A stretch of DNA of 64,000 nucleotides from an archaeon (GTDB lineage Archaea > Aenigmatarchaeota > Aenigmatarchaeia > GW2011-AR5), in contig JANQNA010000003.1 in assembly GCA_028279825.1 (NCBI GenBank), positions 30,518 to 94,517 on the forward strand, in the 5' to 3' direction. The notes below the pieces were generated by a model. The model worked only from the letters and a program-made list of their open reading frames with translations. It was not told the DNA's origin and searched no databases. The number at the start of each line of letters is the position of its first letter. The first letter of the stretch is position 1. Made by a program: the position numbers and the translations under genes. Of this stretch, positions 5,244-61,891 are shown in pieces.

Positions 5244-5299
5244 GTCTACCCAAGTATAGTTAGAAAAAACAAAATTTAAAGCAAAAAACAAAAAAAGGT

Positions 5300-11572: not shown

Positions 11573-11845
11573 ATGAGTTCAGGTATATCATTCCCAGCTA
11601 CACGTGCATGGTTGGCTTTTTCTATAAGGGGTTATCATGTTGAAAGGGAGAATGGCGGATGGACAGTTCTACATGATGCAATTGAAGTTACACATTATGA
11701 AAGATCAGACAGTGGGGGATTAAGTTTCCGGCTTTTTTCCCAGGATCCGGTAGTTAAGGAAATAGCAGATAGACTTGGAGAAAATGTAATTTATGCTTAT
11801 GCACATGGTTTGCAGGCATTTGGACAAGAAACATCTACTCCATGA
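11573..11845 (+). CDS. Hypothetical protein
   Basis: 90-aa ORF with no recognised motif. Confidence 0.35.
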   Translation: MSSGISFPATRAWLAFSIRGYHVERENGGWTVLHDAIEVTHYERSDSGGLSFRLFSQDPVVKEIADRLGENVIYAYAHGLQAFGQETSTP

Positions 11846-14645
11846 ATATTCCAAACTTGTTGGGTGAAGCTACTTTTGCTTTTTGATTTGTTGTCTTGTC
11901 GGCATCTATGATTTCTATCTTTGTGTTAGTTTCTCTCTGAAGAAATTCTTTTGCCTCCTTAAGAAGAATCAACTGCATGCTTTTTGTCATTACAGGTTTT
12001 AGCTCGTTAAGTTTTTTGTAAAGAGACTGGATAAACGACACAGTAGCCTTGCCGTAGGCCCCCGAGGACATTATCTCCTTGGTTATTGTATTCATGTTCT
12101 GATCTTTGTTCCTCAAAACCTTTTGATACACCCTGAACTTCCAGTCTTCTGCGATGAAGAGTATTATCTTCTTTGGCTTCATTTTCACGATTCTCTGAAG
12201 ATCTTCTATATCATTCAGAGTCTTTTTCAACATATCCTCACCCAGCTCAGCTTCATTACTCAGCCTTGTGCTGTCCCATTTCGGCCAGCCGGATATCATC
12301 TTCTTGTTGCCCAGATTGCTCCACATTTCCTCACAAACGTGCGGTGTGAACGGAGTTAGAAGCTTGACAATTACTCCCGTGTATTCCTTGATTACTTTCT
12401 TGTTCGCATTTTTCAGGTTGCCTGTCCTTCTCAAATACCACTTAAGATCCGAAGTGGCCTCGAATAGCGCGCTTTGCACGGCATCGCGGAACATCATTGA
12501 TTCCATTGATTTTGTCGTACTTTCTATAATTTTCTGCAGCTTGCCCTGCATGAACAGGTCAATATTCTCCATCTTCGTCTTCTTTGCCTTTTTCCAGTCT
12601 GTAGACAACTGAAACAGTGTATCATAGCGGTTCCTGTAAGCCTTTACTGATTCTTCTCTCCAGTCAGCATCATCAATTCCCTGGCTGGAACCAACCATGT
12701 TTATCCTTACCATGTCGGCACCGTGCTGCTCTAATAGGCTTTTCAGTGGTATTATGTTGCCCTTTGACTTGCTCATCTTTTCCCCTTCAACGTTGACGTA
12801 GCCGTTGACACTTATTCCATTTGGCCATTTTGCCCTTGGGAATAAAGCAATATGGTGGAACATGAAGAATGTAAGATGATTTTGTACAAGATCTTTCCCG
12901 CTGGATCTCATATCTACAGGATAGAAATATTCGAACTCTTTTCTGAGGTCTCTCAGAATCGAAAGCTTTAATTTTGAAGCTTTCGCCACCTTCTTTGTAT
13001 CACCCTTGCCTGTGAAAATAAAGTCAAACACTTCGTCTGTCAGCTTTTCCGGTTTTACCTTTTTTTCATTGATTATTCTCGCAAGTGTATAGTAAGCCAT
13101 GTAAATTGTTGAGTCACTCAACGTTTCAACAATCCATTCCCTGTCCCATGGAATAGGCGTGCCTAAACCACTCTTTCTCGCACATGCTTTGTCTCTTAAC
13201 CAGTCTATCGTGTTTTCAAAGTTGTTCCTGGCCTCTTCCGGGTAAATAGTCATTCTTGAAAGGTTTGTCCGTACATCTTTCTTCCATTCTTCGTCTGAAA
13301 ACTTCAGGAACCATTGATTTTCCAGAATCTTAACATGACAACGGGTATTACATCTGCACACAACTTCACCGACTTCCCACATGACATTTGCAACACCTTT
13401 TTCTATGAAATCCAGTGTTAGTTTCTCTTTTGATTCGTTAACTTTCGTTCCTGTATATTGTCCTGAATTTTTTACAGTTCCCGTATGGAATTCTTTCTTA
13501 TAGAGCAACGAAGTTGCTTCATCAAGCTTTTTCGTATCCGATAAGTCCTTTATACCCATTTGCTCACATAGCTCCACAGCAGGTAATTCACCAAACCCTT
13601 CAACCTCTATCACACTGACTGGTTCTATGTCCGTGCGTTGTGTGTTGTACAGCTGCAGTTCATCCTTGTCCATAAGCTCCATTAATGCGGCCCAGTCATA
13701 AGGCGCGTGAGCAGGCACGCTCATTACAACACCTGTGGCCGTATCTCCACCAACAAATTTTGAAGGAAGGATAGGAATCTCTCTGTTTGAAACAGGATCT
13801 ATGCATCTTTTACCAAAAAGTTCTTTCACGTCAAAATCACTGATAATTTCAACTTTCATCTGGTCCTTCAGTTTTTGCGCAGCTTCGTTGCTGATTATCC
13901 ATCTTTCCCCGTCCACATCTGCCTCGACGTAGTGAGTATCCGGATTCAGCCACATGTTCGTCACACCATATATTGTCTCCGGCCGAAGCGTAGCTGCCGG
14001 CAAGATGTAACCAAGATAAGTGAACTTAAGAAGTACATAGTCAACAGGGCTCTCTCCTTCTCCTATTAGCCTGTCGTGATCACCCGTTGGACTTAAGTCT
14101 TTAGGGCACCATACCACAGGGTGTGTTCCCTGTGTCACAAAACCTTTCTCCTTTAGAGTATTATATTGCCACTCGATAAATCGAGAATATGTAGGCGTGA
14201 GTGTTGTTGTGACGAATTTACGTCTCCAGTCTATGGACATACCGGCTGCCTCCAGCGTAGCGATCCATTTTTTTATGAAAAAGTGAACAAGATTCTTTGG
14301 GTCTTTCTTGAAACCTTCTATGTCCTTTTCTGTAGCCCCATACCCATGCATTGCCTGGATTTGTGATTCATCGCCATTGTTAAGTCTCTTGACGACACCG
14401 ATAATTGGCTCACCTGTCGCGTGAAAACCCTGTGGGAATAGAACATTGAACCCCTGCTGGCGTTTATAACGCGCATATACATCCGTGCGGAATGCCGAAT
14501 AACCATGACCAACGTGTGGGGGACCGTTTACGTAAGGATAAGGAAACGTGATAAAGAATTTTTTGCCTTTGGATACATTAGCCTCAAACATCTTGGCCTT
14601 TTTCCATTTCTTCTGCCACTTACTGTCAAACACTTTAAAATCCAT
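11835..14645 (-). CDS. leuS: Leucyl-tRNA synthetase (archaeal type)
   Basis: 936 aa with YPYVNGPPHVGHGYSAFRTDVYARYKRQQGFNVLFPQGFHATGEPI (the archaeal LeuRS HIGH region) and KMSKSKGN. Confidence 0.9.
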   Translation of the reverse strand: MDFKVFDSKWQKKWKKAKMFEANVSKGKKFFITFPYPYVNGPPHVGHGYSAFRTDVYARYKRQQGFNVLFPQGFHATGEPIIGVVKRLNNGDESQIQAMHGYGATEKDIEGFKKDPKNLVHFFIKKWIATLEAAGMSIDWRRKFVTTTLTPTYSRFIEWQYNTLKEKGFVTQGTHPVVWCPKDLSPTGDHDRLIGEGESPVDYVLLKFTYLGYILPAATLRPETIYGVTNMWLNPDTHYVEADVDGERWIISNEAAQKLKDQMKVEIISDFDVKELFGKRCIDPVSNREIPILPSKFVGGDTATGVVMSVPAHAPYDWAALMELMDKDELQLYNTQRTDIEPVSVIEVEGFGELPAVELCEQMGIKDLSDTKKLDEATSLLYKKEFHTGTVKNSGQYTGTKVNESKEKLTLDFIEKGVANVMWEVGEVVCRCNTRCHVKILENQWFLKFSDEEWKKDVRTNLSRMTIYPEEARNNFENTIDWLRDKACARKSGLGTPIPWDREWIVETLSDSTIYMAYYTLARIINEKKVKPEKLTDEVFDFIFTGKGDTKKVAKASKLKLSILRDLRKEFEYFYPVDMRSSGKDLVQNHLTFFMFHHIALFPRAKWPNGISVNGYVNVEGEKMSKSKGNIIPLKSLLEQHGADMVRINMVGSSQGIDDADWREESVKAYRNRYDTLFQLSTDWKKAKKTKMENIDLFMQGKLQKIIESTTKSMESMMFRDAVQSALFEATSDLKWYLRRTGNLKNANKKVIKEYTGVIVKLLTPFTPHVCEEMWSNLGNKKMISGWPKWDSTRLSNEAELGEDMLKKTLNDIEDLQRIVKMKPKKIILFIAEDWKFRVYQKVLRNKDQNMNTITKEIMSSGAYGKATVSFIQSLYKKLNELKPVMTKSMQLILLKEAKEFLQRETNTKIEIIDADKTTNQKAKVASPNKFGIFME

Positions 14646-14734: not shown

Positions 14735-14854
14735 GGGTTCGTAGCTCAGCTTGGATAGAGCATTAGCCTTCTATCTTCGGAAGAAAGCTAAGGGTCGCGG
14801 GTTCGAAAACTGTATGAGAGCTTTGCTCTCCGGTCGATTATCCCGTCGGGCCCA
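14735..14854 (+). tRNA. tRNA-Arg (anticodon TCT) with a 12-nt intron at 37/38 and a ~32-nt insert in the T-loop
   Basis: Acceptor GGGTTCG/CGGGCCC+A. D arm GCTC-AGCTTGGATA-GAGC. Anticodon stem TTAGC/GCTAA with loop CTTCTA|tcttcggaagaa|A. Exon nt 32-35 CTTC pair with the intron 3' end GAAG to give the 4-bp BHB helix. T stem GCGGG/CCCGT encloses TTCGAaaaCTGTATGAGAGCTTTGCTCTCCGGTCGAttat. A T-run follows. Confidence 0.8.
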
Positions 14855-14871: not shown

Positions 14872-16392
14872 TTAAGCACTATATTCAACTAATTCTTCAC
14901 TTTTTTTCCAAGGTTGTGAATGATTCACTGCTCTATTTTCATAAGTATAACCAAAATCAAATCCCTTACTTGAAACCAAGAATTGTTCTCCATTTCTATC
15001 AAATAATCCTCTTTCCCTAGCACCTTCTAAAAATGTTCTTTGTGCTCTGTAAACTTCATCCTGACATTGTAAGTGATATTCATCATCCCCGACCAACATT
15101 TGATTATATCTACAACCACCACCACAGGAAGTTGAAACATCACATGGTTCACAAGTATCATCGGCCACATCACTTACAAAAGTACTTCTCAATGAAGCAA
15201 AGTCTGGGGTCTCAAATATATTTCCAAATGGTTTTGTTTTTCCAATAGACCAATTGCATCCATATAGATCGCCGTTTGGAGCTATAGTTAATGTTGTCCC
15301 ATCTGTTGGATGGCAGTGAGCATATCTCGGATATGCATCAAAGGGTACCGAACCATCTTTTCTTATTAATCCTTTCGAAGCATGTGCTAAACTTTCTGTG
15401 AATTTTATTCCCTCAAACCTTGTTCTCTCTAGAGCACTTGCCATATCAGGTTTGGAAAGTACATCTATCACAGCTAAAATGTATGCAGCTTCGTTCTCTA
15501 TATTTTGCCCCTGTGTGCTAACTCCACCATAATTCCGAATCAAATTTATTCCATGAACAAAACCTCTTTCATACCATCCTCTCTGTTCCATTTCTTGTAT
15601 ATGTCTTTTAAGATCTCCTAAGCCAGCAATTCCTAAATTTTGTTTTGCCAAAACTCTTACATCCCTATCTAAAAGCTGGTCTATACCCCTTACAACCAAG
15701 TCATAACTTCCTCTATGAGAACCAGGTTTTCCCATTGGTCTTTGAGAATCATGTATTTCCTTGGATCCGTCTAGAGTTATATCAACCTCTGTTATTCTAT
15801 CTCTGTGCCTGGATAACAAATCCAAATACGCTTGATTGATTGTGGCCCCGCTTGTTATAACACTTACATAGTATCCTCTATTTTCAGCTAATTTAAGGAG
15901 GCCTTCATTAAGTTGAAAATTTGCTTGTTGTAGTGGCTCCCCTCCAAAAAGATTCAATGAAATTCTATCTGAAGGTAAGTCTCTGAATTCTCTATAAGCG
16001 CTAATTGCCCTATCTATTTCTCGTATATCTCCTTCTACCAATCTTTTTTTACCACCTTCACTTCTTACATCCTTTTCAAAACAATAAGTACAAGACAGTG
16101 GACATGACATAGTTTCTGTGATAAAGAATGTAGTTGGTCTGGATTCTTGCTTTTTTTCAGCAAATTCTCTCATCTTGTCTTTTTGAATTCTAATTGTATC
16201 TTGTGTATGAAAGAAATGATTAAGATCTGGGTTCAGTTCTCTATCTCTTTTTGAGAAACCCGTTTGAGAATTAAAATCTGTTGAATTAAAGGCATCAGGA
16301 TCAGCTACTAAAACCGAACCTCTTAGTTTATCAACTACAAAAGTATCATTCCCTGTTTCATATACTACGAAATTTCCTTGTTTTTGATCCAT
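14872..16392 (-). CDS. Radical SAM / SPASM-domain protein (peptide-maturase-like) with ~95-aa N-terminal extension
   Basis: CPLSCTYC (Cx3Cx2C) sits at residues ~97-104. The C-terminal SPASM cluster reads HCHPTDG...YGC ... CEPCDVSTSCGGGC. Confidence 0.8.
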   Translation of the reverse strand: MDQKQGNFVVYETGNDTFVVDKLRGSVLVADPDAFNSTDFNSQTGFSKRDRELNPDLNHFFHTQDTIRIQKDKMREFAEKKQESRPTTFFITETMSCPLSCTYCFEKDVRSEGGKKRLVEGDIREIDRAISAYREFRDLPSDRISLNLFGGEPLQQANFQLNEGLLKLAENRGYYVSVITSGATINQAYLDLLSRHRDRITEVDITLDGSKEIHDSQRPMGKPGSHRGSYDLVVRGIDQLLDRDVRVLAKQNLGIAGLGDLKRHIQEMEQRGWYERGFVHGINLIRNYGGVSTQGQNIENEAAYILAVIDVLSKPDMASALERTRFEGIKFTESLAHASKGLIRKDGSVPFDAYPRYAHCHPTDGTTLTIAPNGDLYGCNWSIGKTKPFGNIFETPDFASLRSTFVSDVADDTCEPCDVSTSCGGGCRYNQMLVGDDEYHLQCQDEVYRAQRTFLEGARERGLFDRNGEQFLVSSKGFDFGYTYENRAVNHSQPWKKSEELVEYSA

Positions 16393-18880: not shown

Positions 18881-20524
18881 CTATTTCTTGAATATAAATT
18901 CGAGATCAATCTCAAATGCAACCACAGGATTTTCTAAATCCCATGAGTTAAGCACGGATGGATGAATCTCGCCTATGAAGCCCAGTGAAGTTTTCCCGAC
19001 GAATATCTCTGCTGTGCGACCTTCTATGAAACTGTCATGCCTGCCTTTTTTCAGGTAGTAATCAATTCCTATGTTGCGGAAAAATGCATCCAATCTTTGT
19101 GATATTGTTTCATAACTCACATTGCCTGTACAGGCAGCTGCTAACTTTTGAACATCCCTTGCCTTTGTTTCCCTGGAGTTGTCCGCAAGGACAACATTAC
19201 CTATCTCAAAAACGGATTGTGGATATTCAACATGCCTGTTTTTAGAGAATATGTCCATTAACCCGGGTATCAGACTTGTTCGGAAAACAGACCAGTTTGC
19301 AGACATAGGTTTTTCTATCTCGACGGCTTCGCCGTCGGTATTCATTCTTGCGTAAAGATCATTTACATTTGTTAATGTGTAAGACATTATTTCCTGGAAT
19401 CCTGCACCAATCATTATCTCTGTAAGCTTGTCTATGATGTGAATCTCTTTAGAGATTCCACCTTTTGTTATAGTTTTCAGTTCTTCAGGTTCTATATCGT
19501 TAAAGCCGTATGAAATTATTACGTCTTCTATTACATCATCTTCATGCATTATATCCTGGCGGTATGCTGGGTACAGAACATCAATCTTCTTTCCTTTCTG
19601 TTTGGCATCATATAGTGATTTTTTCAGAAGAACCAGAATCTCTTCTGTCTTTAGCGTTAATCCCAGCATCTTGTTTACAGAATCAACGTTTATTGTATAT
19701 TTCTTCGGCGTGAGATTTGGTGTAACTTCTGAAGTTTTTTGGTAGTTTACTTTTACAGAATATATCGTCCCGCCGCGCTCTGCAAGTGCAGCAACAAGAA
19801 CGTTTATGGCTGTGTTCAAAAACCTGAGATCAAATCCACTGCATTCTATAAAGACGTCAGTAGTCTTTTCCGTAATCTTTCCGCTAAAATCAGAATTGAT
19901 TATAGGCGGCATCGAGAGGACTTCACCGACAGAGTCAATGAATATAGGAAAGTCTTCCTTCAGCAAGTGTCCAAACTCTTTACCCTTTGGGTGTTTTTCC
20001 AGAATTTCTTTAGGATGTAACTTTTCCTTGAACTCCAAAGGCACAAAACTAATGTCCTTGTCTTTGACAGATTTGAACGTTATCGGGAATTGTAATTGTC
20101 CAACATCATAAACACCTATTGCAACTTCCCTGCGGTTGCTGCCAAACGTACCGGCTACCTTTTCTTGCAGCTGAATCATTTGCGACAACATGTTTTCATC
20201 TATTTTCAGTCCCTTCACAACAGCACACGTTGTAAAAGGTCTAACTTTTTCCACACTCTTGTCCACGTTGACAACGTAGTCAGACTTCTTTACTTCGTAT
20301 TTTGGCAAACCAGGACTATATCTTGCCTTTATCTCTCTTGCAACACCTTCGGCACTCCAAAGGTCAGGACGATTTGTATCCTTAATGTCCAATTTAAGCA
20401 CGTCACCCTCTACCTTATCCAACTCAGTCTTGGCAAACATGACATCATCGCGCAATTCCTCTATAGACAGTTTACGCCCGATTAGTCCGCATAAATCCTT
20501 GTGTGATACATCTATTGTTGGCAT
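18881..20524 (-). CDS. pheT: Phenylalanyl-tRNA synthetase beta subunit
   Basis: About 545 aa with archaeal PheT B3/4 and B5 domains, immediately downstream of pheS. The probable start is MPTIDVSHKDL. Confidence 0.85.
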   Translation of the reverse strand: MPTIDVSHKDLCGLIGRKLSIEELRDDVMFAKTELDKVEGDVLKLDIKDTNRPDLWSAEGVAREIKARYSPGLPKYEVKKSDYVVNVDKSVEKVRPFTTCAVVKGLKIDENMLSQMIQLQEKVAGTFGSNRREVAIGVYDVGQLQFPITFKSVKDKDISFVPLEFKEKLHPKEILEKHPKGKEFGHLLKEDFPIFIDSVGEVLSMPPIINSDFSGKITEKTTDVFIECSGFDLRFLNTAINVLVAALAERGGTIYSVKVNYQKTSEVTPNLTPKKYTINVDSVNKMLGLTLKTEEILVLLKKSLYDAKQKGKKIDVLYPAYRQDIMHEDDVIEDVIISYGFNDIEPEELKTITKGGISKEIHIIDKLTEIMIGAGFQEIMSYTLTNVNDLYARMNTDGEAVEIEKPMSANWSVFRTSLIPGLMDIFSKNRHVEYPQSVFEIGNVVLADNSRETKARDVQKLAAACTGNVSYETISQRLDAFFRNIGIDYYLKKGRHDSFIEGRTAEIFVGKTSLGFIGEIHPSVLNSWDLENPVVAFEIDLEFIFKK

Positions 20525-20525
20525 A

Positions 20526-20756
20526 CTACACCCTTCCATAGAACAATGCTTCCAACTTCTCACCATCTTTTAGCGGTCTCTCATCAAAGAAGGATATCAT
20601 CTGTTCTTTTGTTTCTTCATTCTCGAATATGATAGCAAACTTGTCTTTTTCATTAAACATACACCCTGGCATTAGTATATGGAAATGCCACTTGACTTTG
20701 TTCTTGTAACATTCCTCCGCTTTTTTCAACAATACAGAAAATTCTACTTCATTCAT
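20526..20756 (-). CDS. Hypothetical small protein
   Basis: 76 aa between pheS and pheT (4-nt overlap with pheS). No motif recognised. Confidence 0.4.
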   Translation of the reverse strand: MNEVEFSVLLKKAEECYKNKVKWHFHILMPGCMFNEKDKFAIIFENEETKEQMISFFDERPLKDGEKLEALFYGRV

Positions 20757-21997
20757 ACAACCACCTGTTTTCTCAAAAGATCTAAATTCTGGCTGAACAG
20801 ATCACGAATATCTTTTATTCCAAGCTTGAACATGGCTAGCCTGTCTATTCCCAGTCCCCATGCTATGACAGGAACATCAACACCCAACGGCTGTGTTAAC
20901 TCTTTTCTGAACACACCCGCACCGCAAAATTCTACCCATCCAAGTTCAGGGTGTTTTGCGGACATCTGGACAGACGGTTCCGTAAAAGGATAATAGTCTG
21001 GGAAAAACTTTACCTTCTCAGCACCGGCAAATTCTATTGCAAACTTTTTCAGTATACCCAACAGACTTCGAAAGTTAAGCGTCTCATCTACAACAATACC
21101 TTCTGTCTGGTTAAACTCAACACCATGTGTAGCATCTATTACATCCGGCCTGTAGCATCTTGCTATAGAAAAGTATCTTCCAGGTATTTTACAATTCGTA
21201 AGCGTACGCGCCGACGTAGCCGTGCCGTGTGCACGAGGCATCAACCTTGACGCTTTCTCCGGCGACCACTTATAACCCCAGCCGATGCTGCCTGTAGTCC
21301 ATCCATTTTCGTGCGCAGCTTTTACGTTATCCAGCAAAGCACCGCCAGGAAGATCCCCGTTCTTTGGAGATTTTAGAGAATATGTCTGTGTCCAGTCACG
21401 GCTTGGGTGGTTCTGTGGTTGATACAACGCATCAAAGTTCCAGAATTCTAGCTCAATAGTCGGCCCGATCATTTCCTGAAAACCTAACTCCACCAACTTC
21501 TTTCTTACATCACCGAGAAAAGCATTATACGGATGTCTTTTACCGATGTGCATCTTCTTACCCGGGGATTCAACATTGTACGGACGAAGCTTGACATCCT
21601 TCCATACACCCGATTTAATAAGATCAGTATTCAGTGAAGTTACTTCCTGCCCCTTGTACTTTTCCGCTCTTTTTAACAGATCCTCTCCGCCTTTCTTGAC
21701 AAGTTTTCTGGAAATAAGCGTTTCTACTATAGAAGTTTCCTTGTCATCTGAAACATCCTTTAAACCATTTTGCTGATCTTCTATTTCTTTTGGCTCTTTT
21801 GTTAGGGTTAACTTGCCGTGTACAACTTCTACACAATCATATTTCTTGCACCATTGAAGGGCTATGGAAAATTCTTTACCAAGTTTCTGCGTTGCCTCTT
21901 TCATTTCCACAGGCCCATCCCTTATTAGCTCTATTAACCTCTTCTCAGGTAACCCCTTCTTTAGGTACTTTTTGCCTTCTTCTGTTAGTACATACAT
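20753..21997 (-). CDS. pheS: Phenylalanyl-tRNA synthetase alpha subunit
   Basis: Class II motifs 2 and 3 (FRKELTQPLG...GAGVFRKE / GLGIDRLAM) with an N-terminal winged-helix region. Confidence 0.9.
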   Translation of the reverse strand: MYVLTEEGKKYLKKGLPEKRLIELIRDGPVEMKEATQKLGKEFSIALQWCKKYDCVEVVHGKLTLTKEPKEIEDQQNGLKDVSDDKETSIVETLISRKLVKKGGEDLLKRAEKYKGQEVTSLNTDLIKSGVWKDVKLRPYNVESPGKKMHIGKRHPYNAFLGDVRKKLVELGFQEMIGPTIELEFWNFDALYQPQNHPSRDWTQTYSLKSPKNGDLPGGALLDNVKAAHENGWTTGSIGWGYKWSPEKASRLMPRAHGTATSARTLTNCKIPGRYFSIARCYRPDVIDATHGVEFNQTEGIVVDETLNFRSLLGILKKFAIEFAGAEKVKFFPDYYPFTEPSVQMSAKHPELGWVEFCGAGVFRKELTQPLGVDVPVIAWGLGIDRLAMFKLGIKDIRDLFSQNLDLLRKQVVV

Positions 21998-22031
21998 GAT
22001 ATCACTTTAGATTCATCAAATAAAAACATAG

Positions 22032-22319
22032 TTATTCCTCAACTTTCATATCAACTACTAGCGCCGTTTTTCCAACCCATCCGTCAGTATCAACAAAGTT
22101 AACACCTTTCCCTCTTCCCAGGTATACAGCAACCTCTCCATATCCATATCTAAAACGTCTAATAGCACAGTCAGGGACGGCATTATCCGATTTCATATGT
22201 TCCAAAGTCTCTTCTATCATTTCTGCATAACTACCCCTTGCATTAGCACCGTTAATTTCGATGGTTTTCCCGTCAGGTGCCCTTACCCTAACAACAAAGT
22301 CTTTCTTTTCATATACCAC
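22032..22319 (-). CDS. Hypothetical protein
   Basis: 95 aa with no recognised family. Confidence 0.4.
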   Translation of the reverse strand: MVYEKKDFVVRVRAPDGKTIEINGANARGSYAEMIEETLEHMKSDNAVPDCAIRRFRYGYGEVAVYLGRGKGVNFVDTDGWVGKTALVVDMKVEE

Positions 22320-22470: not shown

Positions 22471-23946
22471 ATGACGCAAGAGAAGATAGAAGAAGTGGCC
22501 AGAAGGCGAGGGTTCTTCTGGAAGGGATCAGAGATATACGGCGGACTCTCCGGTTTTTACGATTATGCTCATTTAGGATCAGCTATAAAGATCAAGTGGG
22601 AGAACGAGTGGAGAAAGTTTTTCCTATCTCTGGACGACAATTTCTTTGAAATTCAACCAGCAAATATAATGCACGAAAAAGTGTTCATAGCCTCCGGCCA
22701 TGTTGATTCTTTCGTAGATCCGGTTGTAAAGTGTAAAAAATGCGGTAACTTCGAGAGAGCAGACCAGATACTTGAGCACCATCTCAAAGAGAACTTTGAA
22801 GGAATTGAGCCTAAAGAATTGGAAAATTTGATAAAGAAGCATGATATAAAATGTCCTAAATGCGAGGGTAAGTTCGAAGAAGTCGGGTCATTTAACTTGC
22901 TGTTTCCTTTGACTGTCGGTGCAGAGAATCCGCAAAAGGCTTATCCCCGCGGCGAGACGGCCCAGGGTGTTTACGTAAACTTTGCCCGGGAGTTCGAGTG
23001 CCTAAGAAAAAAATTGCCAATGGGTCTGGCCATCGTGGGCAAAGCCTACAGGAACGAAATCAGCCCTAGAAACTTATTGTTAAGGATGCGTGAGTTTACA
23101 CAGGCAGAACTGCAGATATTCTTTGACCCGGAAAAAATAGAGGAACACCCAAAATTTGAAGAAGTAAGAACTGAAAAACTTCGCGTTCTTTTTGTGAAAA
23201 ACAAAGAATCCAAGGAAATTACGGCTGAAGAATTAACCAACAGATTACCCCAGTTTTATGTTTACCACATGGCCAAGGTACAAAAATTCTTTTTGGAAGT
23301 CATGAAGTTCCCTAAAGAAAAATTCCGGTTCAAGGAGTTATCTGAAGAAGAACGGGCATTCTACAACAAATATCACTGGGATGTTGAACTAGAGCTTAGC
23401 AACGGTTTTACGGAAGTTGGCGGTGTTCACTACAGAACAGACCATGACCTTTCAGGACATCAAAAAGTATCTAAAGAAGACATGTCCGTCTTCACAGATA
23501 AAAAAATCCTGCCGCACGTTCTGGAATTAAGTTTTGGAGTTGATCGTAATGTTTTGGCCCTGCTGGAACTAAATTATCGTGAAGATGAAAGAAACTTTTT
23601 CACGTTTCCCAGAAATGTCTCACCATTCCATTGTGCGGTTTTTCCTTTAGTCAAGAAAGACGGTCTGGACGAATTAGCCACAGAAATAAAAGAGCTGTTG
23701 AAAGAAAACCTTTCTGTGTTCTACGACAATTCAGGAAGCATAGGCCGCAGATACAGGCGAATGGATGAGATCGGTGTGCCGCTTTGTTTAACGGTTGATC
23801 ACAAGTCTTTAGAGGACAAAACCGTAACACTTCGTGATCGCGATTCAATGGCACAGGTTAGGGTGAAAATTAGCGATCTGGAAGATTTTATGCGCAGATT
23901 TTTCAAAGGAGAAGACCTGCAAAACCTCGGAGTTATAGTTAAATAG
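22471..23946 (+). CDS. glyS: Glycyl-tRNA synthetase (archaeal/eukaryotic alpha2 type)
   Basis: MTQEKIEEVARRRGFFWKGSEIYGGLSGFYDY is the N-terminal signature of alpha2 GlyRS, and class II motifs are present. Confidence 0.9.
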   Translation: MTQEKIEEVARRRGFFWKGSEIYGGLSGFYDYAHLGSAIKIKWENEWRKFFLSLDDNFFEIQPANIMHEKVFIASGHVDSFVDPVVKCKKCGNFERADQILEHHLKENFEGIEPKELENLIKKHDIKCPKCEGKFEEVGSFNLLFPLTVGAENPQKAYPRGETAQGVYVNFAREFECLRKKLPMGLAIVGKAYRNEISPRNLLLRMREFTQAELQIFFDPEKIEEHPKFEEVRTEKLRVLFVKNKESKEITAEELTNRLPQFYVYHMAKVQKFFLEVMKFPKEKFRFKELSEEERAFYNKYHWDVELELSNGFTEVGGVHYRTDHDLSGHQKVSKEDMSVFTDKKILPHVLELSFGVDRNVLALLELNYREDERNFFTFPRNVSPFHCAVFPLVKKDGLDELATEIKELLKENLSVFYDNSGSIGRRYRRMDEIGVPLCLTVDHKSLEDKTVTLRDRDSMAQVRVKISDLEDFMRRFFKGEDLQNLGVIVK

Positions 23947-25348: not shown

Positions 25349-25609
25349 ATGGAAATCATGCTTACTGAAGCACAGATAAGATTCATTAACGACGAAGCGG
25401 AAAAACTCTGCGTTTCCTATGGATTCGGATATGTTCGCGACAAAGATGGGTTAAGCACAGCAACACGTTGCGGTGTTTCAGTCTACAGGATTTGGATAAC
25501 AAAAGGTCGTGGAAAAAGCTACGGTGTTAAAAACGTTACACCTTTAGAAGGAACAAGATACCGGAATAAGTTTTTAGAAAAAGAACTGATAAAAATTCGT
25601 AAACCTTAA
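25349..25609 (+). CDS. Hypothetical protein
   Basis: 86 aa, preceded by an AT-rich TATA-like box. Confidence 0.35.
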   Translation: MEIMLTEAQIRFINDEAEKLCVSYGFGYVRDKDGLSTATRCGVSVYRIWITKGRGKSYGVKNVTPLEGTRYRNKFLEKELIKIRKP

Positions 25610-26196
25610 GGCTTATGTCGTGTTATCTGGTAATAAGTCACGTCGCCTTCATTATCTACAATAGCCCAGAGCATTCTAGCACGTATATTATGTGCAAGTC
25701 TTACCGATCTGGACAGCTCCTGGAAAGAGCAGGCGTAATCTTCTGATATTGAGAATACAATCCACTTGGTGTGCTCTTTAGACGATTTAGGACCCTTTTT
25801 GAGCTGCACACCCCGTTCATACACACGAAAATCACAGCCAAACTTGAAGCCTGTGCGGACCAAAAGTCCTCTCTCGCGTAAGTCTTCATATACTCTGAAT
25901 CGTTCAGCGAAGCGCGGATCAAGTTTACCAGCATGCGCATAAAGTTCCTCAAAATCAACCTGTTTTTTCCCGGAGAAAACCTTTATCCGGCCGCGCTTAA
26001 GCAGCAGCAAAGCTTCTATCAGAGCTAACTCTAGCCTGTCTCCTAACTGCTTTCCGTAGTAACCCGGCTCGTAGACATGCTCTGAGTTTTCTGTGGCTAT
26101 TACTTTGTCGCCTTCCAGCTTCGTGTCTACAACCATCTTGAATGGTTCCGGCTCTACATACTCATTGTCCTCTATTTTTGTTTTCTTCTTTGGCAT
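25606..26196 (-). CDS. endA: tRNA-splicing (intron) endonuclease
   Basis: The EndA catalytic-domain signature YEDLRERGLLVRTGFKFGCDFRVYE with downstream HS/K. The start MPKKKT is chosen because the upstream ORF-track codons overlap tRNA-Phe. Confidence 0.85.
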   Translation of the reverse strand: MPKKKTKIEDNEYVEPEPFKMVVDTKLEGDKVIATENSEHVYEPGYYGKQLGDRLELALIEALLLLKRGRIKVFSGKKQVDFEELYAHAGKLDPRFAERFRVYEDLRERGLLVRTGFKFGCDFRVYERGVQLKKGPKSSKEHTKWIVFSISEDYACSFQELSRSVRLAHNIRARMLWAIVDNEGDVTYYQITRHKP

Positions 26197-26198
26197 AG

Positions 26199-26272
26199 TG
26201 GGACTGGTGGGATTTGAACCCACAACACCACGGTCTTCAGCCGTGTGCTCTCCCAGGTTGAGCTACAGTCCC
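26199..26272 (-). tRNA. tRNA-Phe (GAA)
   Basis: The reverse complement folds as GGGACTG-TA-GCTC-AACCTGGGA-GAGC-A-CACGG-CTGAAGA-CCGTG-GTGTT-GTGGG-TTCAAAT-CCCAC-CAGTCCC-A. Confidence 0.9.
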
Positions 26273-26313
26273 TTTTACCCATGATTAAACCTCTTTTCAA
26301 AGAAGCTTATAAG

Positions 26314-26386
26314 CGCCTCCGGCAGGGCTCGAACCTGCGACCCTCACGTTAACAGCGTGATGCTCTACCTACTGAGCTACAGAGGC
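26314..26386 (-). tRNA. tRNA-Asn (GTT)
   Basis: The reverse complement folds as GCCTCTG-TA-GCTC-AGTAGGTA-GAGC-A-TCACG-CTGTTAA-CGTGA-GGGTC-GCAGG-TTCGAGC-CCTGC-CGGAGGC-G. Confidence 0.9.
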
Positions 26387-39066: not shown

Positions 39067-39214
39067 TGGGCCGCGTGAGATTTGAACTCACGACCTCCTG
39101 CTAACCTAGATCACAACGATGTAAACTGTATGACGCATCTTGAATGCGTCTTTCTACTTCTTATCGTTGTGTGTCATATAAGACAGGTGCTCTACCAGGC
39201 TAAGCTAGCGGCCC
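39067..39214 (-). tRNA. Intron-containing tRNA, anticodon reads TAT (tRNA-Ile UAU) with a 74-nt structured intron at 37/38
   Basis: Reverse complement: GGGCCGC-TA-GCTT-AGCCTGGTA-GAGC-A-CCTGT-CTTATA|intron|A-GCAGG-AGGTC-GTGAG-TTCAAAT-CTCAC-GCGGCCC-A. Exon nt 32-35 CTTA pair with the intron 3' end TAGG to form the 4-bp BHB central helix. The intron holds a 9-bp helix CACAACGAT/ATCGTTGTG and an inner hairpin GACGCAT-tcaag-ATGCGTC. Confidence 0.7.
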
Positions 39215-40854: not shown

Positions 40855-40925
40855 AATTATACTAGTCGACCCGCTTTAAAAAGATTCAATATGACGAGGA
40901 ATAATATTACTACAGAATGGAATCA

Positions 40926-41030
40926 GGGCCTGTAGTCTAGTGGTATGACGTCTGCTTCACACGCAGGAGACCGGCGGTTCGATAGCTGTATGAGAGCTAC
41001 GCTCTCCAGTCGAGTGTCCGCCTGGGCCCA
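40926..41030 (+). tRNA. tRNA-Val (CAC) with a ~32-nt insert in the T-loop
   Basis: GGGCCTG-TA-GTCT-AGTGGTAT-GAC-G-TCTGC-TTCACAC-GCAGG-AGACC-GGCGG-TTCGAtag[CTGTATGAGAGCTACGCTCTCCAGTCGA]gtgt-CCGCC-TGGGCCC-A. The insert block is shared with tRNA-Arg. A T-run follows. Confidence 0.75.
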
Positions 41031-47700: not shown

Positions 47701-49359
47701 ATGCCTGATTTTTCTTCCGCCATGCAGGAATGGGGACAACTCCTGGGAAGTGATCGTGTTAGTTCTGACGGAAACGTTCTGGATAGATACGGAACCAACA
47801 TTAACGCTTTGTATAGAAGAGTTCGGGGTGTTTTATATCCTGAAACCACCAAAGAAGTCCAGGAAGTTGTAAGAATAGCACGGAAACGTGGTGTATCTCT
47901 TTATCCTGAGAGTACGAAACAGAATCACGGCCTGGGCGGTGCAACACCCGTGCAGGACGACTGTGTTGTTGTTGATCTTGGCAGAATGAATAAAATCAGT
48001 GTCAACGAAGAATACCACTACGCTTTAATCGAGCCGGGTGTGACCCAGGGGCAGCTGTATGAACACTTGGAGCAGGATGGAATTCCACTGATGTTTGATG
48101 CAACAGGCGCAGGAACAAGGGCAGGGTTTGTTGGAAACGCCGCAGAAGGTGGTGTCGGTTATTTTTCGTTACGTTTTGATCAGGTTTCGGATTATACAGC
48201 TGTACTTGGCACAGGTGAAATTTTTGAAACAGGCTTTCCGTCTGGATCAAGTGTAAAATATCTCTTCAGGTATCCTCCCGGAATGTTCCTGGATGGTTTG
48301 TTTAAGCATTCCAATCTTGGAATAATAACAAAAATAAAGCTTGGTCTTATGCCACATCCGGAATACCGGTCAATGTTGTTATGTAGCATAGGTAGCGAAG
48401 AAAGTTTCCCATACCTGGTTGACGGATTAAGAAAGCTAAGAGATCAGGGAACCATACAGACAGTTGTGAAGATTTCCAATGATTCTAGGTCAAGAATCAG
48501 CATAGCACCACTTTTGTATAGAGAACTTATGCAAAGAGGAACCTATGGCGACAGTCAGAGTACCAGAACATTTGTAGAGAATACTCTTAGGAGAAAATCC
48601 GGACCCTGGAGTGCTATAACAAGTCTTTTGGGAACCCGCAGCGAGGTAAGGAGCAAACAGAGAGAGATAAGAAAAGTGCTTGGTAACGTGGGAAAGGTGG
48701 AGTTCATCACAGACAACGGGCTTGACCTGAACGGTGGACGTTTACAGGTGGGACTTGACTGGGGCAGAGGATTAATGCAAGCAGGGCGGTTTCTTTCACG
48801 GCCGTTTGGCGACCGTCCAAAGAGATTTATTGACACTTACGAGTCTTTAATGGAGTCACTATTGCCTTTGTATCATCTTGCTACCAGAGGCAAACCAACC
48901 GACGCGCCTTTGTTGAGCCTGTATTGGCCCCTGGGTGACATTCCTGAAAACTGGCAATATCCAGAACAGATAGCAAATTGTGGTATGCAATTTAAGCTGC
49001 CTCTAATACCAATGAATGGAATGGAATCAAGGGAAGCAGTAAGAAAAATAAGAGAAACGATAGAGAAGTATGGTTTTGAACCGGCAATTACTCTCAACAC
49101 GGTCGAAAAAGCTTTTGATACTGTCACAAGCATACCATTCAACAGAAGTGACGCAGAAGAGGTTGAAAGGGCCAGTGAATGCGAGGAAGAGCTTTTCCAT
49201 GAACTCGCAGAATTCGGAGATCCTGATTATCGTTTTGGGATCGGCACCATGGGAAGAATGTCTGGTACAGTTCATCCGTACTATCGGATGTTGTACAGAG
49301 CGCTGAAGAATGAATGCGATCCCGATTATATCCTGGCACCTGGAAGATATGAATTATGA
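47701..49359 (+). CDS. FAD-linked oxidase (FAD_binding_4 / PCMH-VAO family)
   Basis: N-terminal PCMH-type FAD-binding domain (YPETTKEVQEVVRIARKRGVSLYPESTKQNHGLGGA ... VVVDLGRMNKI). 552 aa. Substrate unknown. Confidence 0.7.
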   Translation: MPDFSSAMQEWGQLLGSDRVSSDGNVLDRYGTNINALYRRVRGVLYPETTKEVQEVVRIARKRGVSLYPESTKQNHGLGGATPVQDDCVVVDLGRMNKISVNEEYHYALIEPGVTQGQLYEHLEQDGIPLMFDATGAGTRAGFVGNAAEGGVGYFSLRFDQVSDYTAVLGTGEIFETGFPSGSSVKYLFRYPPGMFLDGLFKHSNLGIITKIKLGLMPHPEYRSMLLCSIGSEESFPYLVDGLRKLRDQGTIQTVVKISNDSRSRISIAPLLYRELMQRGTYGDSQSTRTFVENTLRRKSGPWSAITSLLGTRSEVRSKQREIRKVLGNVGKVEFITDNGLDLNGGRLQVGLDWGRGLMQAGRFLSRPFGDRPKRFIDTYESLMESLLPLYHLATRGKPTDAPLLSLYWPLGDIPENWQYPEQIANCGMQFKLPLIPMNGMESREAVRKIRETIEKYGFEPAITLNTVEKAFDTVTSIPFNRSDAEEVERASECEEELFHELAEFGDPDYRFGIGTMGRMSGTVHPYYRMLYRALKNECDPDYILAPGRYEL

Positions 49360-55589: not shown

Positions 55590-58454
55590 TCAAACCTTGT
55601 CGAACTTAAACCCTACTTTCTTGCTTTCTACTTCCACAAAACTGGTTGGTGACCTTATATCCTCGAATACAACACTGTCTGCACCAACCTTTTCCTTTAT
55701 TTCCTTCCCGTATTTTTCCATAAGTTTGTTATCCAGATGCAGTATTATTCTGTTTGCCACAACAAGACCTTGTTTCTTTCTTTCACTTTGTATCTCTCTC
55801 AAGAGCTCTCTTAGGAGTGCTTCTTCTTTGAGTTCATCGTTTATTTCTACATTAAGGTAAACTGTTGTTTCCCCGACCTTCTTGCTTGGCCATTCCTGCT
55901 TTTCAAAGGAAACTTTCTTCACGTTACACATTATCTTGATTATATCACCCAGTTCTTCAACCTCCTTGGGTACAACAAGCTCACTCAATGGCCATCTTAA
56001 TTTGATGTTTTTCTCCTTTCTTATCATGTTTGCTGCTTCTATAGCCTCCAATGCCTTGTCCATCACGTTCTCAAGTTTTTCGTTATTCTTATCAGGTACT
56101 GGCCATCTTTCCAGATGAACAGATCTTCCTGTCATGTCATGATATATGTGCTCAGAAACAAACGGCGTTAGCGGTGCCATTAACTTGCATAAAATTTCCA
56201 GTGTTTGTGTCAGCACGTAGTTAACTCCCCCGTCCTGTCGGTCTCTTACTATTTTTATGTACGTTCTTGATAGATCATTTATTATGAAGTTCATTAAATT
56301 TCTTGCAACCATATGGAAGTTGAATTTGTCAAGATCCTCTGTTGTTTTAAGTGTTAACGAGTTTATTTTGGAAAGTAACCACTCATCCTCCTTTCTTAAT
56401 TTTGAATCACTCTTTGAAGGTTTTGCGTAAGTCTTGAAGTAGTTGTAAGTGTTCCACAGAATATTCAGGTGTCTGCCAAGATCCTCAGCATTTCTATAAG
56501 AAAACTTTTGGGTTTCCCATGGTGCAATGTCATGGCATATATACAGACGAAGCAGATCCGCACCAAGTTTTTCATATCCATCTTCTGCTGAAATTACATT
56601 CCCAAGACTCTTTGACATTTTTTCTCCCTTTTCGTCAAGAGTCCATCCGTTCAGGCAAACGGTTTCGTAAGGTGCTTCATCAAAGGTAGCAAAGCTGCAT
56701 ATCATTAATGTGTTGAACCACGCTCTTACCTGGTCCTGGCTTTCATCAACAAGATCTATCTTCCAAAGTTTTTCGAAAAGCTCTTTATTCTTGAATGGAT
56801 AACCTAAAGATGCCCACGGAGCAATGCCGGAGTCAAACCATACATCCATGATATCTTTTTCTCTTTGCATCTCCTTACCGCATTCACATTTTATCCTGAC
56901 TTTGTCGACAAAATTCTTGTGAAGATCAAACTTCTCCGGCAAACTTTCTGTAGCGTGTTCCCGCAGCTCCGCCGCGGATCCAATAACCTTCTTAGTTCCG
57001 CACTCACATGTCCATACGGGCAGTGGTATGCCCCAGTATCTTTGTCTGGTCACAGCCCAGTCAGGTGCTTCTGAAATTAAATCATGATATCTTTCACCGG
57101 CAAAACTAGGCAGCCAGTTTATTTTCTTGTTTGCCGCTATTATCTTTTCACGCAGGAGGTCCAATTTCAAAAACCATTGTCTGCTCATTCTGTATATCAG
57201 CGGCGTTTTACACCTCCAACAGAGCGGGTAAGAGTGAACTATTTTCTCCGTATGGAATAATTTACCATCCGCTTTAAGATCCTCAATAATTGTTGGATCA
57301 GCCTTTTTGGCAAACATGCCTTTGTACTTGCCTGCGTCTTCTGTCATACAACCCTTCTCATCTATCGGTGAAATTTCCGGCAGATTGTAGTGCTTACCCA
57401 GTTTGTTGTCCACTTCACCGTGTCCGGGTGCTATATGAACCAGGCCGGTACCTACATCCATCGTTACAATATGACCAAACTCGTCCTTTGCAGCTTCGCC
57501 TTTTGCGACAGTCTTGCTTGCCACCCTTTTCTTCATCACCGGCACTGACAAAAGAACCTGGTGAGAGTTAGGATTCTCCCCTATCTCCTTTTGCGAACCT
57601 GTATCAAGAATTGGCTCATACTTTATTCCCGCCAAATTCTTTCCCTGTATATGCTCTAAAACAGTATAGCCCATTTCCAGTCTTTGAAACTCCTCAAGTC
57701 TCTTTTCACCTATTATCAAAACCTGATCGTTTACCCTTACCTTTACGTAAGTCTCATCCGGATGCACGGCAATGGCAGCATTAGCCGGCAGTGTCCATGG
57801 TGTTGTTGTGAAGACCAATAGATACTCGTTACGGTCACAAATCTTGAATTTTATATAGATAGACGGATCTTCCACATCCTTGTAAGACTCACTGGCTTCT
57901 ATTCCTGCCAAAACAGTTTCACAATGTGGACACCAGAATCCTGGGCGATGACCTTCTACAAACAGACCTTTCTCAAACCATTTCTTTACGGTCCACCAGC
58001 CAGATTCTAAATAATAATTCTCTGATGTAAGGTACGGCTCAAGCCATCCTCTCCATGCAGCAACCTTTTTGTAAAAGTTTAACCATATCGGCTCATTACC
58101 CTTTGCAAAACTATGGCATGCTTGTATGAATTTGTCAACACCAACCTTTGTTTCAATATCACCTTTCGACTTTATACCGAGTTCTTTTTCAACTTTATTC
58201 TCTATCGGCAATCCGCCGCAGTCAAAACCCGGCTGGAACCACACGGCGTAGCCTTGCATGAACTTGAACTTGCCCCAGATATCCTTGAATATTGTAGTTT
58301 TCGCGTGTCCGACGTGCGGCACACCGTTTACGTACGGCGGTCCGTCCAGAAGATAGTATTTCTTGCCTTTTCCCATCCTGACAATCTTGTCAGGTATTTG
58401 TTGATCAGCCCACATCTTTTGGACTTCCTGTTCAACTTCTTTAACATCGTACAT
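55590..58454 (-). CDS. ileS: Isoleucyl-tRNA synthetase
   Basis: DGPPYVNGVPHVGHAKTTIFKDIWGKFKFMQGY...PGFDCGGLPIE...VEKELGI (IleRS HIGH region) and KMSKSLGN. Confidence 0.85.
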   Translation of the reverse strand: MYDVKEVEQEVQKMWADQQIPDKIVRMGKGKKYYLLDGPPYVNGVPHVGHAKTTIFKDIWGKFKFMQGYAVWFQPGFDCGGLPIENKVEKELGIKSKGDIETKVGVDKFIQACHSFAKGNEPIWLNFYKKVAAWRGWLEPYLTSENYYLESGWWTVKKWFEKGLFVEGHRPGFWCPHCETVLAGIEASESYKDVEDPSIYIKFKICDRNEYLLVFTTTPWTLPANAAIAVHPDETYVKVRVNDQVLIIGEKRLEEFQRLEMGYTVLEHIQGKNLAGIKYEPILDTGSQKEIGENPNSHQVLLSVPVMKKRVASKTVAKGEAAKDEFGHIVTMDVGTGLVHIAPGHGEVDNKLGKHYNLPEISPIDEKGCMTEDAGKYKGMFAKKADPTIIEDLKADGKLFHTEKIVHSYPLCWRCKTPLIYRMSRQWFLKLDLLREKIIAANKKINWLPSFAGERYHDLISEAPDWAVTRQRYWGIPLPVWTCECGTKKVIGSAAELREHATESLPEKFDLHKNFVDKVRIKCECGKEMQREKDIMDVWFDSGIAPWASLGYPFKNKELFEKLWKIDLVDESQDQVRAWFNTLMICSFATFDEAPYETVCLNGWTLDEKGEKMSKSLGNVISAEDGYEKLGADLLRLYICHDIAPWETQKFSYRNAEDLGRHLNILWNTYNYFKTYAKPSKSDSKLRKEDEWLLSKINSLTLKTTEDLDKFNFHMVARNLMNFIINDLSRTYIKIVRDRQDGGVNYVLTQTLEILCKLMAPLTPFVSEHIYHDMTGRSVHLERWPVPDKNNEKLENVMDKALEAIEAANMIRKEKNIKLRWPLSELVVPKEVEELGDIIKIMCNVKKVSFEKQEWPSKKVGETTVYLNVEINDELKEEALLRELLREIQSERKKQGLVVANRIILHLDNKLMEKYGKEIKEKVGADSVVFEDIRSPTSFVEVESKKVGFKFDKV

Positions 58455-60140: not shown

Positions 60141-60254
60141 GGCTGCTATGGTGTAGCTTGGTTAGCATATGGGCCTGTGGAAAGCTTTCCATGACTTCAA
60201 AAGCGGAAAGTTTACAGTAAGCCTCTGGGGCGGGTTCAAATCCCGCTAGCAGCC
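60141..60254 (+). tRNA. tRNA-His (GTG) with genomically encoded G-1 and 39-nt canonical BHB intron
   Basis: G-1 pairs with C73. GCTGCTA-TG-GTGT-AGCTTGGTTA-GCAT-A-TGGGC-CTGTGG|39-nt intron|A-GCCTC-TGGG-GCGGG-TTCAAAT-CCCGC-TAGCAGC-C. Exon CTGT pairs with intron ACAG (central helix), and intron AAGCTTTCC pairs with GGAAAGTTT (outer helix). Confidence 0.85.
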
Positions 60255-60652: not shown

Positions 60653-61891
60653 ATGAGTATGAAATTCCAGACACCACGAGGTACAAGAGATTTTCTCCCG
60701 GAAGCAATGATGAAAAGGCATTTCGTTATTGATACTGCCAGGACTGTTTTTGAGAACTGGGGTTTTGATCCCTTAGATACACCGGCTTTTGAAGAATATG
60801 CCCTGCTTACGGCCAAATCCGGAGAAGCAATAAAAGATGAGATATATCATTTTAAGGACAAGTCTGATAGAGATTTAGGTCTACGTTTCGACTTCACTGT
60901 TCCATTGGCACGTGTAGTTGTAAACAATCCTGATATACCAAAACCTTTCCGGAGATACCAGTTAGGTCCTGTGTGGCGTTACGACAGACCAGGATCCGGC
61001 CGTTACCGCGAATTCTGGCAGGCTGATGTCGACATTGTTGGCGCCGAAGGCGCTTCAGCAGACGCGGAAGTTGTGGCTTGTGCCTGTGATGCATTGAGAA
61101 AAATGGGTATGTCCAACTTTTACGTTCGTGTGAATAACAGAAAAATAATCAACGCGTTTCTAGGCAGCCTGAATCTCGTCGCCCCTGACATTCTGCGCAG
61201 CATAGACAAACTGGAGAAAATAGGCGACGATGCTGTCAAAGAAGAACTAAAAGAAAAGGGTGTTGGATCTGACGAAATAGAAGCAGTAATGGATTTTGTT
61301 AAAGGAACCATTAAGGACGCTGGTGATATTCTTGATGACAAAAAAGGGATAGAAGAATTGAAAGAAATGGTTAGTATTCTGGAAAGCTTCCAGATACCTG
61401 TTAAAATTGACCTGAGCATGGTACGTGGTTTAGACTATTACACTGGTAACATTTTTGAAATCAATCAGGAGGGTAGCCTGACGATAACAGCCGGCGGAAG
61501 ATATGATAAAATGATCGAGGGTTTCGGCGGACGTCCTACTTCAGCTACAGGCATATCTCTTGGCGTGGATCGTTTGATCAATTTAGTACAGCTGGAGTTT
61601 GGAAAAACTAAAACTCACGTATATTTAGCCAATGTTAAGAGCAAGGAAAAGGTCCTGGAGATAGCGAAACAGCTGCGTGAAATAGGAATAAACAGTGAAT
61701 ACGACGTAATGGGAAGGTCTCTGTCAAAACAGCTGGAATATGTGAATTCCAAAGGAATCAAGTTCCTGATTGTCGTTGGCGAGAAAGAAATCAGCAGCGG
61801 TGTTGTAAAAATCCGCAACATGTTCAACGGAAATGAGAAGGATATAGAACTGAGAAACCTACAGCGTATAAGAGATCTTGTGGATGAGTAA
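60653..61891 (+). CDS. hisS: Histidyl-tRNA synthetase
   Basis: RGTRDFLPEAMMKRHFV, class II motif 2 YRYDRPGSGRYREFWQ and motif 3 GGRYD. 412 aa. Confidence 0.9.
   Translation: MSMKFQTPRGTRDFLPEAMMKRHFVIDTARTVFENWGFDPLDTPAFEEYALLTAKSGEAIKDEIYHFKDKSDRDLGLRFDFTVPLARVVVNNPDIPKPFRRYQLGPVWRYDRPGSGRYREFWQADVDIVGAEGASADAEVVACACDALRKMGMSNFYVRVNNRKIINAFLGSLNLVAPDILRSIDKLEKIGDDAVKEELKEKGVGSDEIEAVMDFVKGTIKDAGDILDDKKGIEELKEMVSILESFQIPVKIDLSMVRGLDYYTGNIFEINQEGSLTITAGGRYDKMIEGFGGRPTSATGISLGVDRLINLVQLEFGKTKTHVYLANVKSKEKVLEIAKQLREIGINSEYDVMGRSLSKQLEYVNSKGIKFLIVVGEKEISSGVVKIRNMFNGNEKDIELRNLQRIRDLVDE

Follow-up and report, generated by a model that had tools for sequence, protein, structure and literature searches.

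Why do two otherwise unrelated tRNA genes carry almost the same block of sequence inside the T-loop? The question arises in a 64-kb stretch of archaeal DNA, analysed here at its full length and called the window below, in which tRNA-Val(CAC) and tRNA-Arg(TCT) share such a block. The original prediction offered either recent intron transposition or a shared structured element recognised by the splicing endonuclease. We propose, with considerable confidence, that the block is a BHB-spliced intron located between tRNA positions 59 and 60, and that the Val and Arg copies belong to one homologous family that has been copied between tRNAs and is quickly gained and lost.

A 33-nt insert in two T-loops

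The tRNA-Val(CAC) gene occupies 40926..41030 (+), a span of 105 nt that runs exactly from G1 to discriminator A73, with no encoded CCA, and that comprises a 72-nt mature body and a 33-nt intron. This intron, AGCTGTATGAGAGCTACGCTCTCCAGTCGAGTG at 40984..41016 (+), lies between positions 59 and 60 and is a 33-nt insertion relative to four orthologues. Its removal leaves the T-arm GGCGGTTCGATTCCGCC, the same as in tRNA-Val of a related metagenome locus (L085), and ARAGORN called tRNA-Val(cac) once the 33 nt had been deleted in silico. The gene is situated after that for UMP kinase. A putative TATA-like archaeal promoter element, TTTAAAAAG, precedes it at 40875..40883 (+), and a matching A/T block is found upstream of every tRNA-Val orthologue in L085-L090.

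The tRNA-Arg(TCT) gene, at 14735..14854 (+), has 120 nt, made up of a 75-nt mature body and two introns. It lies divergently beside the LeuRS gene, as it does in several related metagenome loci, and can be aligned to tRNA-Arg(TCT) orthologues that adjoin LeuRS and have either no intron or other interruptions. Its T-loop intron, AACTGTATGAGAGCTTTGCTCTCCGGTCGATTA at 14808..14840 (+), is again 33 nt long and placed between 59 and 60; removal leaves the T-arm GCGGGTTCGAATCCCGT, as in the L007 orthologue. The second intron, assigned from sequence and fold, is the 12-nt TCTTCGGAAGAA at the canonical site 37/38 (14774..14785, +), with a central helix CTTC:GAAG and bulges TAT and AAA; its register was set by the rule that anticodon bases 34-35 lie within the central helix (PMC4090602). 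ARAGORN labelled the spliced gene 'tRNA-SeC(tca)', a reading we reject because it sets the 12-nt intron out of register; TCT follows from both the BHB register and the orthologues. The opposite strand encodes a 506-aa radical SAM protein directly downstream of tRNA-Arg, at 14872-16392 (-).

The likeness of the two inserts was first described over a 28-mer, CTGTATGAGAGCTACGCTCTCCAGTCGA, which occupies 40986-41013 in tRNA-Val and recurs with 3 mismatches at 14810-14837 in tRNA-Arg. The predicted 25/28 identity is therefore confirmed, and at <=3 mismatches these are the sole two matches in the window, with none in 100 shuffles. The predicted GAGAGC-N3-GCTCTC hairpin is likewise present in both inserts, and both occupy the identical non-canonical position that had been proposed, between 59 and 60. 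The extent of the block needs correction. In both genes the T-loop region measures 40 nt against the normal 7, which puts the insert at 33 nt rather than ~28 nt; and the block, placed correctly in the T-loop by the original prediction, starts 3 nt after TTCGA instead of directly adjoining it. Over their full length the Val and Arg inserts are 27/33 (82%) identical, as against only ~65% for the mature tRNA bodies.

Predicted splice motif and presumed endonuclease

The T-arm and intron of tRNA-Val (40973..41022, +) are predicted to form an hBHBh' structure, which is both the MFE and the centroid fold of this 50-mer (-20.9 kcal/mol, z = -2.6) and recurs in the fold of the full pre-tRNA. The predicted structure has a 5-bp T-stem (GGCGG 40973-77 : CCGCC 41018-22), followed by a central 4-bp helix in which U54-G57 (TTCG 40978-81) pair with CGAG (41011-14). 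The 5' bulge ATA (40982-84) consists of A58, U59 and the first intron base, and the 3' bulge TGT (41015-17) of the last two intron bases and U60. Beyond the 4-bp inner helix (GCTG 40985-88 : CAGT 41007-10) come an extra bulge, TAT (40989-91), and the hairpin GAGAGC-TAC-GCTCTC (40992-41006). The tRNA-Val insert is accordingly furnished with the 3-nt bulges, 4-bp helix and flanking helices of a BHB. At the canonical site, where anticodon bases 34-35 lie within the central helix, cleavage follows base 37 (PMC4090602); by the same rule the T-loop would be cut between bases 59 and 60. In tRNA-Val, a cut at 59/60 alone reproduces the orthologous T-loop TTCGATT (L085). The tRNA-Arg product TTCGAAT equals that of L007, with cuts at 58/59 and 59/60 giving the same sequence, and its 59/60 assignment is set solely by the bulge register. 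Excision at the bulges yields a canonical tRNA, as judged by the ARAGORN call for Val and by T-arms equal to those of intron-less orthologues.

In tRNA-Arg the motif is relaxed. Both known copies, from the window and from the related locus L010, have a U54-U mismatch that leaves 3 pairs in the central helix, and their MFE folds leave this helix open; cleavage there would require a tolerant enzyme. The suggestion that a relaxed BHB might form at the T-loop junctions is thus borne out for Arg, the Val motif being canonical in its MFE fold. The idea of a shared structured element for the endonuclease survives in part: a splice motif is indeed predicted, but the conserved GAGAGC hairpin does not form it and only extends the inner helix, the motif being built from pairs between T-loop bases 54-57 and the intron 3' end. 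Across three T-arm/intron copies, pairing holds in 96.5% of cells and 4 pairs show changes in both partners, a covariation signal that is statistically weak with three copies.

Several other identities for the insert were considered and rejected. A self-splicing group I or group II intron needs a core of hundreds of nucleotides against the 33 nt present, and Rfam gave no match at E <= 1 nearby. The GTATGAG segment does not read as a K-turn, which would have tandem sheared G-A pairs beside a 3-nt bulge, since its GA, following the TAT bulge, lies opposite UC and pairs with it in Watson-Crick fashion. The sequence contains no C (RUGAUGA) or D (CUGA) boxes of a C/D box sRNA, and no Rfam match was found. 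The TCGA flanking the intron is not a clean target-site duplication, extra bases following the second TCGA; the repeat is equally well explained by the need to pair with the T-loop, because TCGA is palindromic.

We infer the following course of events, including cleavage, ligation and the direction and mechanism of copying. In the precursor, the near-universal U54-U55-C56-G57 would pair with the intron 3' end CGA(G/U) to give the central 4-bp helix. The 5' bulge would consist of bases 58 and 59 with the first intron base and the 3' bulge of the final two intron bases with U60, and the inner helix would come from the intron stem (GCUG/CAGU together with the GAGAGC hairpin). In each bulge the EndA of the window would be expected to cleave behind the second base, and the T-loop would then be rejoined by an RNA ligase as UUCGAUU in Val and UUCGAAU in Arg. 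Copying between tRNA genes could proceed by DNA recombination or gene conversion, the DNA level being the probable one, or through an RNA intermediate. Since the exon side of the splice motif is already supplied by the conserved T-loop, a further tRNA could easily receive a copy, and an intron ending in TCGA would be portable among tRNAs with a TTCGA T-loop. Both window carriers of the 33-nt intron have a TTCGA T-loop, and the window tRNAs with TTCAA, a small sample, have no such intron.

The endonuclease gene was correctly placed within the window. An ORF at 25606..26196 (-), encoding 196 aa from its ATG, matches both Pfam EndA domains (tRNA_int_endo_N, E = 1.7e-16; tRNA_int_endo, E = 6.1e-28) and corresponds to a tRNA-splicing endonuclease subunit of the catalytic type. 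Nearly the whole protein can be aligned to the M. jannaschii alpha4 EndA (1a79). A 6-aa insert, KKGPKS, stands directly before the catalytic His, where the alignment to the N. equitans alpha subunit (3iey_A) is gapless; it probably represents the DPANN-type loop of Kaneta et al. The sequence has an exact 196-aa match, P0121, and homologues at 74-86% identity that, where named, come from Candidatus Aenigmarchaeota (DPANN), a source to which the UMP kinase matches also point. This EndA is the presumed remover of both 33-nt introns.

Introns interrupt 4 of the 6 tRNA genes of the window. The genes for tRNA-Asn, tRNA-Phe and EndA are co-oriented and almost abutting (25606-26386, -), so co-transcription is possible; the endA ATG at 26196 lies 2 nt from the tRNA-Phe 3' end at 26198, and the longest ORF call for endA (GTG, 26223) overlaps the tRNA and is probably wrong. 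The tRNA-Ile(TAT) gene, at 39067-39214 (-), is interrupted at the canonical site by a 75-nt intron, which folds as a long hairpin, and lies just upstream of a thermosome gene, as it does in L085, L087 and L090. The window is also unusually rich in aminoacyl-tRNA synthetase genes (AlaRS, LeuRS, PheRS alpha and beta, a class II Pro/Thr-like enzyme, an Ile/Val-type class I enzyme and HisRS, at 2541-5291, 11835-14645, 18881-21997, 22471-23946, 55590-58454 and 60653-61891), with tRNA-His directly upstream of HisRS. A further gene at 47701-49359 (+) encodes a FAD-binding, 4-cresol dehydrogenase-like oxidoreductase; its best non-self homologues are ~38% identical, those named being mostly bacterial (Kiritimatiellia, Pontiella), and it may have been acquired horizontally.

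Distribution of the intron and rival readings

Comparison with tRNA genes of related genomes, as originally advised, is informative for both carriers. The T-loop intron is absent from the tRNA-Val orthologues of four relatives (L085, L086, L087-89 and L090), among them a close relative whose UMP kinase is 76% identical to that of the window. These orthologues have D-loop and 37/38 introns that belong to a different shared family. Among the related tRNA-Arg(TCT) genes, L010 alone carries a T-loop intron; none occurs in L005, L006, L007, L008, L009, L011 or L020, which have other introns at other sites, or none. The L010 intron is 33 nt long and 28/33 identical to the tRNA-Arg intron of the window, and shows a compensatory hairpin change from A-U to C-G with the inner helix still paired; the LeuRS proteins of the two loci are 66% identical.

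The sharpest comparison is between L010 and L005, whose LeuRS are 96% identical in amino acids and 90% in nucleotides and whose tRNA-Arg genes have a 21-nt anticodon-stem intron in common. Since L005 is without the T-loop intron, the intron must have been gained or lost very recently. The tRNA-Arg genes lie at 9717-9845 (-) in L010, at 5202-5297 (-) in L005 and at about 2698-2801 (-) in L006. Position 55 of tRNA is normally invariant. L005 and L006 have an unusual C55 (T-loop TCCGAAT), and L010 has T55, the base that pairs with the intron; T55 in L010 could reflect exon co-conversion, or selection for intron pairing. The distribution of the Arg intron among orthologues fits gain and loss alike, and its presence in both the window and L010 could go back to a single old gain, with several later losses, instead of to gains that were repeated.

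This uneven occurrence across orthologues shows that the intron turns over rapidly. The proposal of recent intron transposition agrees with this pattern, which fits recent gain, loss or copying, and transposition as such is probable. As judged from their sequences, the Val and Arg introns are homologous, since they also agree in segments that the splice motif leaves unconstrained. Two features of a transposed family are evident here: introns at the same position are more alike than the tRNA bodies that carry them (82% versus ~65%), and the intron is missing from orthologous tRNAs of relatives, in every comparison for Val and in all but L010 for Arg.

Further copies were sought more widely. A covariance model of T-arm plus intron (R1) found in 355 kb the three known copies only, all in T-loops, the tRNA-Arg match at 14797-14846 scoring 76 bits; all three stand exactly at 59/60 and in the same orientation. 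The block could have proved to be a generic repeat present at many non-tRNA sites, and it was found at none outside tRNAs, with two copies in the 64-kb window and three in 355 kb. A 19-nt intron core had no archaeal match in 185,579 species-representative genomes, so the family is narrow or quickly diverging; its four bacterial matches are about the number estimated by chance for 19 specified bases in that collection. A degenerate 25-base pattern had 0 matches in viral contigs. The family census for the source genome covers the 64-kb window.

Other introns use the same site. A relaxed home-made finder of T-loop introns returned mostly false positives, that is, intact tRNAs rediscovered, and two of its calls survived inspection. 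In L009, tRNA-Ala(TGC) at 21895-22180 (-) has a 130-nt 59/60 intron of unrelated sequence together with a 68-nt canonical intron. In L090, the orthologue of the window tRNA-Ile(TAT), at 3654-3876 (-), has a 46-nt 59/60 intron, also of unrelated sequence, and three introns in total. Both use the same T-loop pairing, with A57:U for G57:C in L090, and both are BHB-like, with a single unpaired A opposite the 5' bulge. An apparent second intron family, with the core CTTTCCAGAAAGC...CAAAGCGGA, is seen at the D-loop and 37/38 of the relatives' tRNA-Val (L085 4490-4655; L086 1370-1570; L087 10812-10935; L090 10880-11002), and a similar 39-nt intron lies at 37/38 of the window tRNA-His(GTG), 60142-60254 (+). 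This suggests that intron copying in the lineage is general and extends beyond the T-loop family.

A bolder reading, which we hold only tentatively and think rather unlikely, is that the 33-nt element is a mini-intron that is still mobile today, with the universal T-loop as its target, and inserts independently. In any TTCGA tRNA, U54-G57 would pair with the 3' TCGA of the element, giving a ready splice site at 59/60. The element would then have entered tRNA-Val and tRNA-Arg separately, and the same tRNA-Arg site in two genomes (LeuRS 66%). In L010 it may have co-converted the flanking exon base, from the C55 of L005 and L006 to U55, a homing-like signature. If this were so, L010 and L005 (90% nucleotide identity in LeuRS) would provide a natural before-and-after case for the gain of a BHB intron.

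It is less probable, and on balance improbable, that both tRNAs inherited an old 59/60 intron whose likeness results from structural constraint or gene conversion, with no new insertion. The TCGA at the intron 3' end is forced by T-loop pairing, hairpin pairing is maintained by compensatory change, and a tRNA-Arg copy common to the window and to L010, with LeuRS only 66% identical, is compatible with an old origin. Against this stand the four tRNA-Val orthologues without any T-loop intron, one of them close (UMP kinase 76%), and an identity that includes the BHB-unconstrained parts CTGTATGAGAGC and GCTCTCC. The 59/60 introns of L009 and L090, very different in sequence and in length, satisfy the same constraint, so constraint alone is insufficient to account for 27/33 identity.

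That the insert is never spliced, the genes being pseudogenes or encoding tRNAs with an enlarged T-loop, seems very unlikely. Rejection of both genes by standard tRNA finders would fit such a reading. All remaining tRNA features are nevertheless intact in both, and T-rich terminators lie downstream of each; the insert shows exact BHB geometry, and excision restores the orthologous T-arm. Synteny, with tRNA-Arg beside LeuRS and tRNA-Val beside UMP kinase, is that of functional orthologues. Moreover, the fold between T-loop and D-loop is conserved in tRNAs, and a 40-nt T-loop would abolish it. Least credible of all is a generic short genomic repeat, MITE-like, that landed by chance in two tRNA genes: the short core with a hairpin and TCGA at both ends could suggest one, but every copy, two in the 64 kb and three in the 355 kb, lies at T-loop 59/60 in the same orientation, with no viral-contig matches and four bacterial matches in representative genomes, close to the chance estimate.

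A copied 59/60 intron, spliced from both tRNAs, remains our preferred account, and it bears on annotation. Neither ARAGORN nor Rfam (at E <= 1) detected the intact tRNA-Val and tRNA-Arg genes, so automated annotation would report tRNA-Val(CAC) and tRNA-Arg(TCT) as missing, and such missed calls feed false claims of incomplete DPANN tRNA sets.

Comparison with known intron systems

T-arm insertions in tRNA genes are also found in algal nucleomorphs and Cyanidioschyzon, where protein splicing machinery removes them; the enzymes there are eukaryotic, the insertions mostly 3-24 nt and the lineage unrelated, whereas the present intron has 33 nt. Nearer to our case are the non-canonical archaeal tRNA introns reportedly described by Marck & Grosjean 2003 and Sugahara et al. 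2008, at 59/60 and at the T-arm sites 53/54 and 56/57. They share with the present introns the 59/60 position and a BHB or relaxed-BHB junction, and the gene that carries them often has another intron as well, as tRNA-Arg does here. They have been described mainly for Crenarchaeota and Nanoarchaeota, whereas the present case comes from Aenigmarchaeota. Position 59/60 is among the archaeal non-canonical intron sites already listed (PMC4090602).

DPANN lineages offer a second comparison. Kaneta 2018 (PMC5829648) describes many disrupted tRNA genes for DPANN lineages with a loop-bearing EndA. The window resembles these systems in belonging to a small DPANN genome with tRNAs that standard predictors miss, introns being present here in 4/6; its EndA, as in N. 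equitans, bears an additional loop adjacent to the catalytic His. Fujishima 2011 (PMC3239211) and Kaneta 2018 (PMC5829648) deal with enzyme classification and counts of disrupted genes, and their searchable text contains no DPANN intron families shared between tRNAs. Nor did we find a publication on shared intron families in Aenigmarchaeota.

The closest precedent is the 'large-scale intron transposition' of Thermoproteales, in which near-identical introns occupy unrelated tRNAs (Fujishima 2010, summarised in PMC4090602). Those families and the present one consist of near-identical BHB introns at the same position in tRNAs of different isoacceptor identity, and in both the introns are missing from orthologues in related species. 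Their spread in Thermoproteales is thought to act at the DNA level (PMC4090602). The present host differs in being a DPANN archaeon (Aenigmarchaeota-like) rather than a crenarchaeon, and the family has two or three members, from 64 kb of genome, in a comparison made through the review (PMC4090602). The kind of phenomenon is therefore already known, and what is new is the lineage and the endonuclease type. Our data extend the pattern of copied tRNA introns from hyperthermophilic Crenarchaeota to DPANN with a different type of splicing endonuclease, and offer a simple reason for the T-loop as a recurrent landing site, in that the conserved T-loop gives half of the splice motif. Collectively, this suggests that the spread of BHB introns is a general archaeal process rather than the quirk of a single order.
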